From a virus (taxonomy: Duplodnaviria; Caudoviricetes), in IMG/VR virus record IMGVR_UViG_3300026191_000002, positions 1 to 50,972 of that record: a DNA stretch of 50,972 nucleotides. One strand, written 5' to 3'. The notes under the pieces are model-generated. The model ran no database searches and was not told the DNA's origin. It saw only the letters and a list, made by a program, of their open reading frames with translations. A program made the translations under genes and the position numbers. Shown in pieces: positions 5,835 to 44,320 of this stretch (its first letter is position 1; the number at the start of each line of letters is the position of its first letter).

Positions 5835-6041
5835 GTGAATGACTTTCTTTCCGATCAAGAAATTGAAGAACTTACTGGCGCTAAACAAGTGAGTAAGCAA
5901 AAAGAGATCTTAACAAAGAATCGAATATACTTTGTTGAACGCACAGATGGAAAAATAAAAGTGTGCTGGCACCACGTTCACAACCCTATGGTTGATAAAC
6001 AGTCTGGTACAGATTCGCTAATTAATTGGGAAGCAGCATGA
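5835..6041 (+). CDS. Putative excisionase (DUF4224-like)
   Basis: FLSDQEIEELTG..Q...L....I.F..R.DG pattern; directly upstream of the integrase. Confidence 0.75.
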   Translation: MNDFLSDQEIEELTGAKQVSKQKEILTKNRIYFVERTDGKIKVCWHHVHNPMVDKQSGTDSLINWEAA

Positions 6042-7036
6042 CCAGAAGGAAAAGCCGTAAAGACGCATGGATGCCGCCGCGTGTATACAGAGGTAAATCA
6101 GCTTATGAGTATCACCCTAAAGGGGGTGGTGCTATTAGGCTTTGCAAACTCGATGCAAAGAACTGGGAGGTATTAAAAGCCCACGAAGATGCAGTTCAGG
6201 CGCTTGAAGCTAAAGAGAACCTTTCAGGTTTGGTAAGCGACTTTTTTGAAAGCGCTGATTTCTCTGATTTATCGAAAACTACGCAAGCTGATTACCGCAA
6301 GTATAGCCGTAAGGTTTTATCGGTATTTGGTAAAGTTCACCCCGATAACTTAGAGCCTCGTCACGTTCGCGCTTATATGGATAAGCGTGGTGCTAAATCG
6401 AAGACACAAGCCAACCGTGAAAAGGCTTTTCTTTCTCGTTGCTACCGTTGGGCTTACGAACGCGGCCTAGTTAAACAGAACCCATGCAAAGGCGTTAAAC
6501 AGTTTAAAGAAACTGCCAGAGATAGATACGTTGAAGACTGGGAATACAAAGCAGTATTTGAAAACGCCCCACCCCACGTGCAAGCAGCAATGGAGATAAG
6601 CTATTTGTGCGCGGCGCGTAAAGGTGATGTTCTATCAATGACGTGGGACCAAATACGCGATGAAGGTATTTTCATTCAGCAAGGCAAGACCAATGTAAAG
6701 CAAATTAAGGAATGGACCCCACGCCTTAGAAAAGCTATTGAGTTAGCCAAATCGCTGAGAACGGGAAATATTATTAGCCGCTGGGTTATCTGCCAGGCTA
6801 ACGGGAAGTGTTACACAGGTCGAGGTTTCGATCAGGGTTGGATGGATGCGCGTGAAGCAGCTCGAGCAAAAACCAACATGGCGTTAGATTTCACGTTCCA
6901 TGATTTGAAAGCGAAGTCTATCAGTGATTATGAAGGTAGCACGAAAGAGAAACAGATCTTCTCTGGCCATAAAACAGAGCGACAAGTTAATACTTACGAT
7001 AGGAAAGTGAAAGTTGTTCCTAGCCTAAAAAGGTGA
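6038..7036 (+). CDS. int: Tyrosine recombinase (phage integrase)
   Basis: AARKGD, QGKT, FHDLKAK, SGHK and C-terminal Tyr motifs; adjacent to attP; ATG at 6038 overlaps the upstream stop. Confidence 0.95.
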   Translation: MTRRKSRKDAWMPPRVYRGKSAYEYHPKGGGAIRLCKLDAKNWEVLKAHEDAVQALEAKENLSGLVSDFFESADFSDLSKTTQADYRKYSRKVLSVFGKVHPDNLEPRHVRAYMDKRGAKSKTQANREKAFLSRCYRWAYERGLVKQNPCKGVKQFKETARDRYVEDWEYKAVFENAPPHVQAAMEISYLCAARKGDVLSMTWDQIRDEGIFIQQGKTNVKQIKEWTPRLRKAIELAKSLRTGNIISRWVICQANGKCYTGRGFDQGWMDAREAARAKTNMALDFTFHDLKAKSISDYEGSTKEKQIFSGHKTERQVNTYDRKVKVVPSLKR

Positions 7037-40446: not shown

Positions 40447-41187
40447 CTACTCCTTGTTTGCCCAGTTAGACATGACGCGCATGTTTTCTTCGCGTATGCG
40501 TTCTTGGTGGCTTTGGAAGGTGCGGTTAGGTTGCGCATTGGTTTTAGGGTGAACCGATTGCCAGCCATTCATGATGGCTTCGTTGATTAGCTCTTGTGGA
40601 GAATGACCGTCAAAGCGAAGACCGCTTAGTTTTGCAACTAGCAACTCAACTGCGTGAGTAGTCATTGGCTTTTTGATTTTTTTTCTGTAGCTAACGAAAG
40701 CATTCAGGCTTTCAAGAGAAATAATCTTTTCGCGCTTTATTGTTTCAATGACAGATTCAGTAATGACAGGTTCTATACTGACAGATTCGGGTGCAGATTT
40801 TTCACTAGGGGTTAGTGCAGATTTTTCACTAGGGGTTAGTGCAGATTTTTCACTAGGGGGTGGTGCAGATTTTTCACCATCTGGTGAATTGTTTTCACTA
40901 GGTAGGGGTGCAGATTTTTCACCACCAAGCGTCAAGTAGTAAACGTTGCTTGAATTGCCTTTTGGCCCCTTTCTTTCTTCCTTGCGAACCAGTCCTTTCT
41001 TGATAAGTTTATCAATATGGTTGATAGCACTACGGCGAGATATTTCGCAGACTTCAGCTATATTATCATAGCTTGGCCAGCACTCACCTTTGTCGTTTGC
41101 ATTGTCAGCAAGTTTAAGCAGAACCATTTTAGTAGTTGGGCTTCCAGCTTTAACCTGCATAGCTGAAAACATCATTTTAATGCTCAT
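40447..41187 (-). CDS. Replication initiator (gpO-like, N-terminal HTH)
   Basis: KMVLLKLADNAND.G.CWPS...IA..CEISRR motif; internal iterons; C-terminal NGWQS. Confidence 0.9.
   Translation of the reverse strand: MSIKMMFSAMQVKAGSPTTKMVLLKLADNANDKGECWPSYDNIAEVCEISRRSAINHIDKLIKKGLVRKEERKGPKGNSSNVYYLTLGGEKSAPLPSENNSPDGEKSAPPPSEKSALTPSEKSALTPSEKSAPESVSIEPVITESVIETIKREKIISLESLNAFVSYRKKIKKPMTTHAVELLVAKLSGLRFDGHSPQELINEAIMNGWQSVHPKTNAQPNRTFQSHQERIREENMRVMSNWANKE
40749..40922. repeat. Iterons (replication origin within the initiator gene)
   Basis: GTGCAGATTTTTCAC at 40791, 40815, 40839, 40863 and 40908, degenerate copy at 40884; three TGACAG at 15-bp period (40749, 40764, 40779). Confidence 0.88.
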
Positions 41188-41207
41188 GTGCCCTCCTAAA
41201 ACCTGGC

Positions 41208-41297
41208 TTGCTATATTTTTTGTATTCGCTCATAATTACTCCGAACTTAGTTGTTCTAAACCCCGCATTTGCTTTCCACGGCTAGCGGGGTTTTTTT
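41208..41297 (+). ncRNA. Putative OOP-like antisense small RNA unit (promoter plus terminator)
   Basis: TTGCTA-17 bp-CATAAT (41208-41236) then AAACCCCGC..GCGGGG-T7 (41258-41297). Confidence 0.6.
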
Positions 41298-41299
41298 AT

Positions 41300-42020
41300 T
41301 GGTGTAACAGACCTCCCAGCCTGCTTGGTCGGGGTTAACGTGATTAGCGCTTCACGCTTGACCGACTAGGTAGGATCAACACTTACGGCGCTACCTCGTT
41401 CCTCCGTAAGCATCAGACCGATATACTGCGTCACCCAGTTAAAGCGCGGCCGCAAATGTGCAACCCTTACGCTTTGATGTGCAGATCTCTGCTACGGCTT
41501 TACCGCCCCAGCATTTGGGCAAAGCAACTGCACTCAAAACGCCCTACACTTTCGCAGTAGGCGCGGCCATGGTCGTCACCTTGGCGCCAACTCGGATGAA
41601 TAAGCCCTATTGCTTACCGTTACCGATACTAGAAAGCGTTGCCGGTGCCTCGTCTTATCCGAACGTTCTCTGGCCCATGGCTTTGTCGGTTAATTCCGTG
41701 GGGTTTATAGTGGGCACCCTCATTCGCCCACAGCCAGCAGCAATAACGCTTTGATGAATGACTGACCGATACCACACTGACCAAGCTCATTACCCGTTAG
41801 GGCGCTTCTTGCGTTACATCCCTAGCAGTCATTCTCAAAACGCCTTGTCTCTCCAAGTGTCACCTTTGTCTTTCGCCGCTAGCTAAGGTCGCTAACCATG
41901 TCCGAGTAGCCCAACACTCTTATGACTTCTGCTTCGTTTATCTGAATGTCCTCGCAATACGGAAGAGGATTGCTCAGGCGGTACATTCAGGACGTTTAAA
42001 GCGCAACATCAAACGCTTAC
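41300..42020 (-). ncRNA. Putative structured non-coding RNA block
   Basis: No convincing ORF; many inverted repeats; two units with identical 11-nt flanks. Confidence 0.5.
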
Positions 42021-42022
42021 TG

Positions 42023-42196
42023 CTAAATTGATTTAATAAATGCACCTAGCCAAAAACTAACAGATGCGTAATAGGCTAAAGCTGCCAACTCAACCGCTAA
42101 TACAATAACGGCCACTCGAAACTGCCAGTCGGTTTTAAACTGGTGTGCGAAGCTGCGAAAATGACGTTTACAAAACCACGCAAATTCCGAACGCAT
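42023..42196 (-). CDS. Small membrane protein (57 aa, not in track)
   Basis: MRSEFAWF...VAVIVLAVELAALAYY; GGAG RBS and TAATG coupling. Confidence 0.55.
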   Translation of the reverse strand: MRSEFAWFCKRHFRSFAHQFKTDWQFRVAVIVLAVELAALAYYASVSFWLGAFIKSI

Positions 42197-42244
42197 TACG
42201 CTGCTCTCCGCGTTGGTGTAAAAGCTGGTTTTGGCTGTGTGCGC

Positions 42245-42415
42245 TTAGGGTTTATTGGAACTACTTTGCTCATGACCTTTATCCTGTTCATTCTGAGTTG
42301 GAAAAATAATACTCATGTTGCTTTCGTGAGTTTCGAAAACAGCATCCTCAACTAAGGTGATTGGAGTGCCATTAATCTTCACCATCTCACCCGCTTTTAA
42401 AGTAAACTGCTTCAT
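42245..42415 (-). CDS. Small hypothetical protein (56 aa, not in track)
   Basis: MKQFTLKAGEMVKING...; GAGG RBS. Confidence 0.55.
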   Translation of the reverse strand: MKQFTLKAGEMVKINGTPITLVEDAVFETHESNMSIIFPTQNEQDKGHEQSSSNKP

Positions 42416-42493
42416 TAGCACCCCTCTCTTGTTGCGTTAAATACAAAAACTAAATCAACGATTGTCAGCACTAAATAGGAAGTCAGCGCGAAC

Positions 42494-42850
42494 ATGAAAA
42501 TTGAACTATCAGAAGCGAAAGCAATTATCATCAGCATGATGAGCAGATTTAACGGGCCAGCTAGGCGCATACACTTTCGGCTAGTGCGTAATGATGAGTA
42601 CTTTGCGGCAGCGGCTTTAAAAAAATGGCCCATACTTCTTGGTATGCCTGTCGCAATTTTTGCAGCGCTTTTACAAGTCAAGAAAGTTGATAGTGAGATT
42701 TTTAATTTCATATCACTCCTATTACCCATAGTTCCTATTGCATACTTTTTGATGGACTCGCATTTCGAAGCTAAGCAAGTAAAGAGGCGAATAGAATTAA
42801 AAGCCAAACGACTGCAAGACATTGCGCTTTTAAAAAATCGGCAAGCTTGA
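42494..42850 (+). CDS. Two-TM membrane protein opposite to the early operon (moron-like)
   Basis: 118 aa with two hydrophobic helices and a basic tail. Confidence 0.6.
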   Translation: MKIELSEAKAIIISMMSRFNGPARRIHFRLVRNDEYFAAAALKKWPILLGMPVAIFAALLQVKKVDSEIFNFISLLLPIVPIAYFLMDSHFEAKQVKRRIELKAKRLQDIALLKNRQA

Positions 42851-42876
42851 ATTACTTTGCTCATGCTGCTTGCTCC

Positions 42877-43074
42877 TTACTTATTAGGGACTTTTGAGTC
42901 CCTCAAAATCTTTGTTAGTGCCATTGTTGATGGGCAAATGTCGGTTAATACAGATCCAAGACCTTCAAGCATTGCTCGTTGCGCTGCTTCCTCAAGACTT
43001 ACGCCAAGCTCGTCTGCATGTTTTTGTAGTAGTTCTAATTCTTCGTTACTGAGCTCTATTTTTTCTTCGGTCAT
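42877..43074 (-). CDS. Small ribbon-helix-helix-like protein
   Basis: IELSNEELELLQKHADELGVSLEE pattern. Confidence 0.65.
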   Translation of the reverse strand: MTEEKIELSNEELELLQKHADELGVSLEEAAQRAMLEGLGSVLTDICPSTMALTKILRDSKVPNK

Positions 43075-43130
43075 TATTGAGGGCCTTAAAAAGTCTTAGA
43101 TGAACCCTCTTCGGGTTCTTCGTTAATGCT

Positions 43131-43319
43131 TTAAGCTGCTGTACGCTCTTTACTTCCAAACGAAACAGACTCTTTTAGGCCACGCATGAAAATGTCACGA
43201 ACAATTACCGCTTTTTGTCCGCCAGTGTTTTTTACCAGCGCTTCAAGCAAGTCATTAACGTCATCATCTAAACGAACTTTGACTTCGTTCTTTTTGATTT
43301 TCCTAGGATCCGCATACAT
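43131..43319 (-). CDS. Small regulator in the cII position (RHH-like)
   Basis: MYADP..IKKNEVKVRLDD..GGQKAVIVR; GGAG RBS before ATG at 43319. Confidence 0.7.
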   Translation of the reverse strand: MYADPRKIKKNEVKVRLDDDVNDLLEALVKNTGGQKAVIVRDIFMRGLKESVSFGSKERTAA

Positions 43320-43335
43320 GGCTCTTATCTCCGTG

Positions 43336-43521
43336 TTAACTGGCTTTTTTAAGTTCTGGCTCTTCAGCTTTAAGCTTGCCGTTTGTGATCCGCTCAAGCT
43401 GATAAGCTCTCAGTAAAGGAATGTTTTCTTTCCATTCACTAACAGATGGCGCTTTTATTGATAGAGCATCGGCTACTGCTTTCACGCTTCCAAAATGCTC
43501 TATAACCTCGCTCTTTTTCAA
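43336..43521 (-). CDS. cro: Cro-like repressor
   Basis: MKKSEVIEHFGS..AVA.AL.I...SVSEW...IP..RAYQLE.IT.G.LK; divergent from cI. Confidence 0.9.
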   Translation of the reverse strand: MKKSEVIEHFGSVKAVADALSIKAPSVSEWKENIPLLRAYQLERITNGKLKAEEPELKKAS

Positions 43522-43522
43522 A

Positions 43523-43600
43523 AGGAACTCCTATTTTTAGTAGGTTTTCCAAAAGTATTAATCAAAGGAGTTCCTATGTCAAGTAATGTTAGGATTTCCT
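43523..43600. promoter_or_regulatory. oR/pR: four AGG-N4-CC(T/A) operators and the cro promoter
   Basis: Sites at 43523-43532, 43542-43551, 43566-43575 and 43591-43600; minus-strand TTGACA (43582-43577)-17 bp-AATACT. Confidence 0.8.
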
Positions 43601-43621
43601 AAATTATTTTATGGAACCTTT

Positions 43622-44320
43622 ATGAGTAACTTTGGTGATAACTTGAGACGCGTAAGAAGTGCGCTTAGGCTTTCTCAGTCAGCGTTTGGAAAAAAGGTGG
43701 GCGTGAGTGGGCCAACGATCTCAGATTGGGAAAATGATGTTCAAAAGCCTAGAGGGAGTAATCTTCTAAGCTTATTAAGTCAATTTCCTGAACTTTCGAA
43801 AGATTTTCCTGAGTATAATAAGATATCCAAGATAAACAGTGATAGCGCCAAATACATTGGCCATGTTGACGCTTGGGATAGCAATACAGAACTAGACGAG
43901 GATGAAGTAGAAGTGCCGTTTTTCATGGATGTAGAACTAGCAGCGGGTGTAGGTGGTGAATTAGCACTAGAGATCCAAGGGCCTAAATTAAGATTTTCAA
44001 AGTCAACATTAAGGCGTTGTGGGGTTCAAGCTGAAGCAGCAGCTTGCGTCAAAGTTTCAGGCAATAGTATGGAGCCAAGACTGTTTGACGGTGATGTGGT
44101 TGGTGTAAATACTTTAGATAAGAAAATTATAGATGGTAATACTTACGCAATAAATCACGATGGTCTTTTACGGGTCAAGCGTCTTTATAGAATGCCAGGT
44201 GGGGGAGTCAGAGTTAATTCAATGAACGGGCAAGAGTACCCAGATGAACATTACACAGAGCAAGAGGCCAAAAGCATCAACATTGTTGGAAAGGTCTTTT
44301 GGCACAGTTCAATATGGTAG
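43622..44320 (+). CDS. cI: CI-like repressor (HTH plus S24 peptidase)
   Basis: SQ..F...VGVS..TISDWE HTH; LAAG cleavage site; GNSMEP and VKRL catalytic motifs. Confidence 0.95.
   Translation: MSNFGDNLRRVRSALRLSQSAFGKKVGVSGPTISDWENDVQKPRGSNLLSLLSQFPELSKDFPEYNKISKINSDSAKYIGHVDAWDSNTELDEDEVEVPFFMDVELAAGVGGELALEIQGPKLRFSKSTLRRCGVQAEAAACVKVSGNSMEPRLFDGDVVGVNTLDKKIIDGNTYAINHDGLLRVKRLYRMPGGGVRVNSMNGQEYPDEHYTEQEAKSINIVGKVFWHSSIW

Follow-up and report, generated by a model that had tools for sequence, protein, structure and literature searches.

It is already known that hairpins of early phage transcripts can be recognised as double-stranded RNA. The T7 early sites and the lambda N-leader and sib sites are RNase III processing hairpins in early polycistronic transcripts, which the host enzyme recognises as double-stranded RNA, needing little sequence. 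Other structured elements have comparable layouts. Lambda nut, HK022 put and Bacillus EAR are processive antitermination RNAs, found in an early operon or upstream of terminators. Y RNAs and YrlA combine a conserved closing stem that has a bulged nucleotide with a variable second module. Integron attC sites, too, are imperfect hairpins, whose ends are conserved, whose centre of 50-140 nt is highly variable and which carry an extrahelical base; they act in single-stranded DNA with the IntI integrase, and they flank genes. PeSL "mobile regulatory cassettes" are promoter-plus-stem-loop units that flank genes at T4-type mosaic junctions. rRNA operons are described as pairing a boxB/boxA/boxC antitermination leader with leader-trailer helices cut by RNase III (PMC10250234), and DicF is described as a small RNA cut out of the dicBF operon of the Qin prophage (bioRxiv 10.1101/2023.04.14.536235).

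The 50,972-nt stretch analysed here (the window, meaning that whole stretch) is the record of a 96%-complete virus genome with a lambdoid gene layout. It is a P24-like Alteromonas prophage, and the phages that carry the element described below form a group of temperate marine Alteromonas phages. Four genes frame the locus.

43586-44320, plus strand: cI-like repressor gene, consistent with the lambdoid layout.
43336-43521, minus strand: cro-like gene, behind a strong promoter-like site and followed by several small genes.
42023-42196, minus strand: 57-aa ORF with a hydrophobic C-terminus; a context gene upstream, whose stop abuts the leader.
40447-41187, minus strand: O-like replication initiator gene (PHROG replication initiation O-like, E 1e-38); context, outside the RNA element.

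Past the O-like gene come a loader and methyltransferases and then NinB and NinG, while Ant, RecT and RecE genes lie on the other side of the locus. The 57-aa ORF has tblastn matches in 38 of the 63 other stretches that carry the element. The last small early gene is separated from the O-like gene by an ORF-poor gap of ~800 nt (~41226-42031) with no credible ORF and a G+C content of ~0.54, compared to ~0.40-0.43 in its surroundings. The element occupies this gap, and two cassettes with one common closing helix sit within it.

41845-42028, minus strand: conserved structured leader, ~185 nt (23 distinct leaders aligned).
42000-42017, minus strand: leader P1 hairpin, invariant, then the boxA-like GCGCUUUAAAC at 41994-42004.
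41942-41991, minus strand: leader P2 domain, from the leader alignment.
~41877-41897, minus strand: leader hairpin with a GACCU-type loop, from the leader alignment.
41844-41864, minus strand: invariant GGUGACACUUGGAGAGACAAG, abutting the first cassette.
41746-41844, minus strand: slot 1 cassette, interior type 0, 99 nt (MFE -38.0 kcal/mol, z -4.28).
41544-41745, minus strand: spacer S1, from alignment with four other loci (L008, L010, L007 and L018) and blastn segments.
41469-41543, minus strand: slot 2 cassette, interior type 1, 75 nt (MFE -33.5 kcal/mol, z -4.07).
41301-41468, minus strand: tail past the last cassette, with a hairpin at 41448-41465, then GCGCUUUAA at 41439-41447 and more conserved sequence.
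41258-41293, no strand assigned: conserved G+C-rich terminator-like hairpin that ends the element in all loci reaching that far.

The analysis shows that the cassettes are autonomous structured-RNA modules on the transcribed strand, built on one irregular clamp helix and exchanged between phages. The first-pass annotation had described identical flanks around a 75-nt and a 99-nt unit, and this description holds. The flank 11-mers, ACGCTTTGATG at 41469-41479 and 41746-41756 and CTCAAAACGCC at 41533-41543 and 41834-41844, each have exactly two matches in the 50,972 bases with both strands scanned; dinucleotide shuffles predict 0.04 and 0.08 matches, and two were reached in none of 100 shuffles. 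On the minus strand the flanks of both units pair as had been proposed, in a closing helix of 5' GGCGUUUUGAG and 3' CAUCAAAGCGU with two G-U pairs and a bulged A. The differing inner stems (TGCAG/CTGCA and AATGACTG/CAGTCATT) also pair, as claimed, and prolong the closing helix. The type 0 cassette continues into an 8-bp type-specific stem and a branched apical domain, and the type 1 cassette into a 5-7-bp type-specific stem, a three-way junction and a conserved GGUAAA loop. Folding of both strands, which the annotation had suggested as a check, gave -22.6 and -25.8 kcal/mol for the plus strands of the 75- and 99-nt units, ~11-12 kcal/mol less stable than the minus-strand folds in both cases. 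None of 200 shuffles folds as stably as either cassette. An alternative pairing, of the last cassette's 3' flank with the downstream GCGCUUU, appears in the whole-region MFE structure; locally it is ~9 kcal/mol worse, and it was set aside.

Two further claims about the layout fared less well. A hairpin near 41993-42017 had been related to the cassettes. Its sequence is present, but the pairing proposed for it is broken in P24-type leaders, and it belongs to the separate conserved leader, so that there is no third cassette. The pairing that the 23 aligned leaders do keep is AGCGU/GCGCU, with four of its five pairs invariant in all 23; the outermost A-U is present in 21, with gaps in the other two. 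The word "array" also overstates the arrangement, which consists of one or two units separated by a ~200-nt conserved spacer or by genes, with no tandem repeat.

Several other identities for the cassettes were considered. Neither is followed by a U run, and a terminator scan of 41100-43700 finds none, so the cassettes do not have the form of intrinsic terminators, which combine a G+C-rich hairpin with a U tract on the transcribed strand. In P24 the 99-nt cassette is covered by an annotated hypothetical protein of 112 aa, but this open frame is not conserved. It spans 53 aa in the window and ends differently in other loci, and it has no match in PHROG or Pfam; the protein-coding reading was therefore rejected. 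Searches of the rest of the window for complementarity to the cassettes found no stretch of at least 12 nt and two of 11 nt, as chance predicts. This lack of an antisense match of at least 12 nt in the rest of the phage counts against the small-RNA reading proposed below.

Searches for known RNA families were equally negative. At the gathering score, Rfam gives no match in the window, and across 14 loci covering all 15 interior types it gives only four ordinary tRNAs elsewhere in the loci; permissive Rfam searches return chance-level matches only, and ARAGORN reports no match within the cassettes. No description of the element was found in Rfam 15 or in the literature on Alteromonas phage P24, on prophage small RNAs and RNase III, and on lambdoid boxA and processing stems. 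Among 50,697 phage records, only P24 matches. The suggestion of an undescribed family is thus upheld.

These negative results bear on one specific explanation, in which the cassettes are Y-RNA-like, with the bulged stem binding Ro60/Rsr, the variable module acting as effector and one type resembling tRNA as YrlA does. The conserved bulged closing stem with a variable far end does parallel Y RNAs, and type 14 (L063:1751-1836) contains GGUUCGAUUCC together with a 4-bp stem and an 8-nt GG loop, pieces that resemble T and D arms. However, neither Y RNA nor YrlA nor tRNA is matched by Rfam in the cassettes, and ARAGORN does not call a tRNA there. The TROVE domain (PF05731) was found in none of the three element-carrying host genomes and not in the one phage record searched, while control genomes gave matches. 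We regard a Ro-type role as unlikely in the extreme.

P24 shares with the window a 250-nt core that includes the 99-nt unit and is 100% identical, whereas the flanking sequence is ~60-85% identical and the leaders only ~70%. A scan of viral contigs for paired flanks detected 13 loci. Applied to 185,579 species, each represented by one genome, the same scan detected paired flanks in five contigs, with ~2 expected by chance. Three of the five are real and lie in Alteromonadales prophage regions (Alteromonas sp. IB21, a Thalassotalea MAG and a gammaproteobacterial MAG); the other two, from Bacteroidota, lack an inner stem and were dropped as chance matches. Relaxing the scan of viral contigs gave 31 loci, of which 18 were new. 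Three of these (L024, L030 and L032) share the leader and terminator and are real, and the remaining 15, which do not share them, were dropped as unrelated. Every real locus has the ~185-nt conserved leader upstream and the conserved hairpin downstream. Scanning for the leader's invariant 21-mer gave 25 viral and 34 metagenome stretches. Altogether the carriers are 64 sources including the window, a set that is not de-duplicated, as some contigs occur in two collections. Two of the sources are CRISPR arrays: in two metagenome contigs, a 32-nt CRISPR spacer is identical to the leader end plus the cassette 5' flank. The family seems to be confined to Alteromonas-group temperate phages and prophages. 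Mimicry of a host element was rejected: outside the prophage of Alteromonas sp. IB21, the flank 11-mers occur once and four times, similar to reversed-pattern controls (once and twice).

The order of parts is leader, one or two cassettes, spacers or inserted genes, a short hairpin with GCGCUUU, and the terminal hairpin. On the 3' side of the terminal hairpin is the ribosome-binding site of the replication module, whose type varies among loci. The smallest elements are ~400 nt long and have a single cassette (L012, L030), and some loci carry an additional short or degenerate cassette beyond the one or two detected. The terminal anchor is present in 56 sources, in which a strict detector finds one cassette in 31, two in 20 and none in five; in those five, cassettes are present with mutated or degenerate flanks. 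The census comprises 35 distinct cassette sequences of 73-135 nt, in 15 interior types (clusters at 70% identity). Types 2 and 4 have a common architecture, as do types 7 and 13, leaving ~13 unrelated interiors. Across the family the flanks hardly vary, being (G)GCGUUUUGAG on the 5' side and CAUCAAAGCGU on the 3' side. Exceptions concern the bulged A, which type 2 lacks and for which types 9 and 10 have G or U, and a CACG start, with which the outermost G-U becomes A-U. The claim of a conserved closing stem around unrelated interiors is therefore borne out across the whole census.

Cassettes behave as exchangeable units. In five aligned loci (the window, L008, L010, L007 and L018), the spacer and tail are near-identical, while slot 1 holds types 0, 2, 0, 11 and 1 and slot 2 holds types 1, 3, 2, 1 and 13, respectively. 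Types 1 and 2 are each seen in either slot. Spacer S1, which has a GAAA-loop hairpin just ahead of slot 2, is nearly unchanged between differing cassette types, and the mosaic breakpoints, taken as the borders of blastn segments, coincide with the shared flanks. Genes have been inserted between leader and cassettes in many loci, for example a signal-peptide protein and a ~65-aa protein.

This mosaicism could be accommodated by an explanation that invokes no dedicated factor. Stable folds would protect the untranslated stretch and the neighbouring mRNAs from Rho and exonucleases, and the identical flanks would persist only as short homologies for module exchange by a phage RecET-type system. 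The phage encodes RecT- and RecE-like proteins, the flanks fall at the breakpoints, the sense RNA of the gap is rich in G and poor in C, and the inserted genes just described also fit. However, eleven bases are very short for homologous exchange. Furthermore, recombination alone leaves unexplained why nearly every copy retains the imperfections of the helix, a bulge on one strand and two G-U pairs, and it does not account for the compensatory changes and conserved loops of the interiors. We consider this explanation distinctly unlikely.

The cassettes are strand-specific in every case. The gene-sense (minus) strand folds better in all 35 distinct cassettes, by 12.2 kcal/mol on average and by at least 3.5, and 16% of pairs in this set are G-U. 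For the whole region, the minus strand folds at -275 kcal/mol (z -2.85) and the plus strand at -240 (z -1.54). When one representative of each type is compared at the eight inner positions, 7.6 of 8 are paired with their own half compared to 4.5 of 8 across types, and the inner eight pairs include 13 G-U against 2 C/A appositions. Covariation in homologs, which the first-pass annotation had named as a check, was found in type 1, in types 2 and 4 together, and in the leader. In type 1 (six variants from 12 loci), both sides change in 6 of 28 pairs, and pairing holds in 98.2% of cells, compared to 38-49% when partners are slid; in types 2 and 4, 7 of 33 pairs change on both sides and 99.0% of cells are paired, compared to 36-49%. 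Type 0, with four variants over 20 loci, shows compensatory changes in its inner stem. The 23 distinct leaders have 11 of 33 pairs changing on both sides and 98.7% of cells paired, compared to 28-44% when slid, and none of 500 shuffles reaches any of five measures. These controls leave relatedness in and the structures were predicted on the same alignments, so the covariation is support rather than proof.

Contigs from RNA libraries agree with transcription of the region. All four metatranscriptome runs, from four studies, have contigs on parts of 41470-42024, although DNA may be present in the libraries. None of the four has a contig on the replication gene at 40588-41175, and uncovered parts cannot be read as expression levels. 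Adapter-bearing contig ends at 42014, 41992, 41888, 41848, 41727, 41698 and 41607 are likewise not readable as RNA ends. Together, the G-U asymmetry, the covariation and these contigs support the earlier suggestion of an element that acts at the RNA level.

The same observations weigh on the idea that the hairpins act in single-stranded DNA, as lagging-strand priming or assembly sites or as attC-like recombination sites. Their location directly upstream of the replication genes would suit such a role, and strand-specific imperfect hairpins with an extrahelical base, a variable centre and cassette exchange match the outline of integron attC sites. However, the strand favoured is, without exception, the one transcribed in the operon, G-U pairs are frequent, a GAAA-loop hairpin and a covarying leader accompany the cassettes, and RNA-library contigs cover the region. 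Cassette type varies independently of the type of replication initiator encoded downstream, the cassettes do not flank gene cassettes, and the flanks, judged by eye, depart from the attC core-site consensus. The only integrase (6026-7036) matches general phage integrase families and lies 35 kb away. A role in single-stranded DNA is, in our view, very unlikely.

What, then, does the common helix do? The shared closing helix is ~11 bp and extends to ~20 bp with the type-specific stem. Tentatively, we propose that the cassettes are autonomous structured-RNA modules in which this ~20-bp shared helix is a common recognition and processing site, with host RNase III as the likeliest enzyme. The stretch belongs to the rightward (cro-side) early operon, untranslated and directly upstream of the replication genes. 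RNase III would separate the cassettes from the flanking mRNA, so that they are released or presented as small structured RNAs, and the leader would sustain RNA polymerase elongation through an untranslated stretch with terminators. The identical flanks would also allow cassettes to be swapped between phages by recombination, and the variable interiors may represent accessory "RNA morons" that serve as decoys or regulators. RNase III (PF14622) is encoded once in each of the three element-carrying host genomes and not in the phage. Its substrates have ~20 bp or more of mostly continuous double-stranded RNA, and the basal helix of the 35 distinct cassettes has a median of 20 pairs (range 12-27).

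Some observations count against processing. A single 338-nt RNA-library contig covers 41698-42014 and bridges the whole 99-nt cassette uncut, although contigs cannot show RNA ends. The bulged A, as described above, is missing in type 2 and replaced in types 9 and 10. Furthermore, the closing helix itself shows no covariation and near-strict sequence conservation over 15 interior types. Since RNase III needs little sequence, a strict, non-covarying closing helix points to a sequence-specific partner or to homogenisation by recombination, and the conservation pattern suggests that either of these suits the helix better than RNase III processing does.

An irregular helix that is invariant and does not covary is the signature of sequence-specific recognition. 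The closing helix could thus be bound by a sequence-specific RNA-binding protein instead of being cleaved; this binding site would be shown one or more times per transcript, with interiors that only hold the helix. The protein could come from the host or be an early product of the phage, for example a translational repressor or an N-like antiterminator. Beyond the near-constancy of the helix sequence, its two G-U pairs and its bulge around 15 unrelated interiors, the element is located where lambdoid phages have a nut site and first terminator, and two small early proteins (43131-43397 and 42877-43074) are 92-100% identical in ~20 loci in which cI and cro are only ~60% identical. However, these two proteins look, by eye, like DNA-binding ribbon-helix-helix proteins, and no RNA-binding protein was identified among the phage genes. 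Searched with a covariance model of the leader's 5' half, the other early operon yields no further copy. The interiors are conserved and covary, which would be needless for a mere holder. On balance, a binding site without cleavage seems unlikely.

Returning to RNase III processing, the same helix could also have a second use. It is possible, though doubtful, that the cassettes constitute an RNA-gene exchange system in which the universal clamp helix is both the processing signal and the recombination joint. Phages would then trade small structured RNAs, for example decoys or mimics directed against host defence or RNA-processing proteins; one cassette type is tRNA-like. Such a system, headed by its own read-through leader, would parallel protein "morons" or integron cassettes at the level of RNA.

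The leader begins at the stop codon of the upstream ORF or, in P24-type loci, a few bases past a sense-orientation intrinsic terminator. In relatives (L018, L004), sense-orientation intrinsic terminators also lie between the leader and the replication genes, inside the variable stretch. Transcription must therefore have some means of reading through, and the leader, as the obvious candidate, probably keeps RNA polymerase elongating through the long untranslated, terminator-containing stretch. The imperfect fit of its boxA-like motif counts against this part of the proposal. The gamma-proteobacterial boxA consensus is given as GYTCTTTAANA (PMC5725501), and the leader motif (GCGCTTTAAAC, 41994-42004) and the tail motif (GCGCTTTAACT) each agree with it at only 8 of 10 specified positions. 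The leader motif varies in three leaders (L009, L018 and L041), and other loci retain only GCGCTTT of the tail copy. We therefore do not assign either as a Nus-factor boxA site. The leader motif resembles a 12-mer of the host, GCTCTTTAACAA (GCUCUUUAACAA), which is present there in two exact copies, each behind a hairpin. Motif searches allowing up to 3 mismatches, and a covariance model built from the leader's 5' half and run with filters off, found no second copy of the leader in the window. A lambda-type nut or HK022-type put arrangement, in which both early operons have related copies, was rejected on this ground.

The terminal hairpin is followed by only UUU on the minus strand and by a run of seven T on the plus strand. 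On the plus strand, a promoter-like site at 41208-41236 faces this hairpin and T run (41258-41300). The pair would yield an oop-like antisense RNA of ~60 nt over the ribosome-binding region of the replication gene.

The noncoding RNAs of phages have been little mapped, and those known are mostly single conserved genes. In the present case a whole clade of temperate marine phages maintains an untranslated locus dedicated to such RNAs. Unrelated structured RNAs that are plugged into one standard helix and exchanged form the pattern expected of arms-race accessory functions. If the helix is a processing signal, it would amount to a portable "socket" of natural origin, through which small RNAs of any kind could be released from an operon. 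The family would then also supply 13 or more uncharacterised RNA folds, and their targets could point to new phage-host interactions. The leader is in addition a candidate for a new RNA element of terminator read-through. The system can be tested, as the isolated phage P24, which grows on Alteromonas macleodii, has the 99-nt cassette unchanged.

Compared to known systems, what appears to be new is a combination of features: a single clamp helix is universal, the structured interiors are many and unrelated, and they are exchanged between slots as well as between genomes. Like the T7 and lambda RNase III sites, the cassettes are irregular hairpins of about two turns between early-operon genes, with sequence shared among sites. 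Unlike them, they have a nearly invariant lower helix and apical parts of 50-110 nt that are independently structured, mutually unrelated and swapped. The leader, rather than the cassettes, is comparable to nut, put and EAR, being a structured RNA upstream of terminators and replication genes with a hairpin beside a boxA-like motif; it shares no Rfam or sequence similarity with them, and its antitermination function is a prediction only. As in Y RNA and YrlA, one cassette type has T-loop-like and D-arm-like pieces, but no Ro/Rsr gene is found in the phage or the three host genomes, and Rfam gives no match. The attC sites share with the cassettes an imperfect hairpin, conserved ends, a variable centre, strand specificity and exchange. 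They differ in that here the transcribed strand is favoured, the "cassette" is the hairpin itself and the ends are off the attC core consensus. Similar to PeSLs, short conserved stem-loop sequences mark where the shuffled modules of a hyperplastic early region meet, whereas the conserved sequences here are the two halves of one helix around a variable RNA. The processing that we propose can be likened to the excision of DicF from a prophage operon and to the processing stems of rRNA, as far as the cited accounts describe them. DicF, in the account cited, is one conserved base-pairing sRNA without a clamp helix or interchangeable interiors, and it has no sequence similarity to the cassettes. 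The rRNA operons resemble the phage element in having a long untranslated structured RNA, a hairpin followed by a boxA-like motif, and closing helices that bracket the products. They differ in that the phage boxA-like motif fits at 8 of 10 positions and the cassette products are predicted to be small and variable.

Two metagenome contigs, L052 and L066, carry CRISPR arrays with a 29-nt repeat (GTGTTCCCCGTGCCCACGGGGATGAACCG), and one spacer in these arrays matches the window exactly:

L052:10243-10274 and L066:810-841, 32-nt spacer, identical to window 41864-41833, minus strand

The matched stretch comprises the invariant end of the leader, the conserved structured RNA preceding the cassettes, and the cassette 5' flank. 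Because the spacer is identical to both, we infer that the conserved leader-cassette junction is targeted by hosts. The adjacent spacer is similar to a phage methyltransferase gene.

The minus-strand hexamer GGUGAC lies in the leader at window 41864 (GGUGACACUUGG) and recurs in the stretch between the two cassettes at ~41575 (AAGGUGACGACC) and in the tail beyond the last cassette at ~41432 (UGGGUGACGCAG). CGGUAA-like loops are found in cassette types 0, 1, 5 and 12, with two more between the cassettes. These hexamers and loops could be shared contact motifs.

At the last cassette (window 41441-41479, minus strand), AAAGCGU in the 3' flank and a GCGCUUU lying 21 nt downstream of it are complementary, with a small hairpin between them. 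This alternative pairing appears in the whole-region MFE structure, but on the local scale the closed cassette is more stable by ~9 kcal/mol; the arrangement is a possible switch.

Cassette type 14 contains pieces resembling tRNA arms, and an annotated reading frame in Alteromonas phage P24 (L002) begins inside the 99-nt cassette:

L063:1751-1836, plus strand, cassette type 14, with T-loop-like GGUUCGAUUCC
L002:3103-3441, CDS QIV64695.1, hypothetical protein of 112 aa, start inside the 99-nt cassette
41629-41790, minus strand, counterpart frame in the window

Type 14 also has a D-arm-like GUUC-AUUCGGUG-GAAC, and ARAGORN and Rfam returned no tRNA, tmRNA or Y-RNA match for it. The frame of QIV64695.1 shrinks to 53 aa in the window, its end point shifts in other loci, and searches of PHROG and Pfam gave no match for it; it is probably not a gene.

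A moron of ~110 aa is inserted directly 3' of the leader's invariant 21-mer, before the first cassette, in L013, L018, L039-L042, L044 and L049. Its N-terminus is signal-peptide-like (MRKILVIGAAIGLA...), and a sense-orientation intrinsic terminator follows it.

The flanking region holds three further features:

within 41208-41300, plus strand, promoter-like site TTGCTA-17-CATAAT, overlapping the O-like gene start codon
43131-43397, minus strand, small early protein
42877-43074, minus strand, small early protein

The promoter-like site points towards the conserved hairpin (41258-41293), and on the plus strand a run of seven T comes after that hairpin. Site and hairpin in combination could produce an oop-like antisense RNA of ~60 nt over the ribosome-binding region. 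P24 also retains the -10 and -35 elements, despite its different downstream gene.

Both small early proteins, which by eye look like ribbon-helix-helix proteins, are 92-100% identical in ~20 loci, whereas cI and cro there reach only ~60%. PSEKSA-type tandem repeats, seen in translation, lie midway through the O-like replication initiator (window 40748-40939). The iterons of lambda-type origins sit inside the initiator gene, in its mid-region, and the PSEKSA-type repeats occupy the same place.
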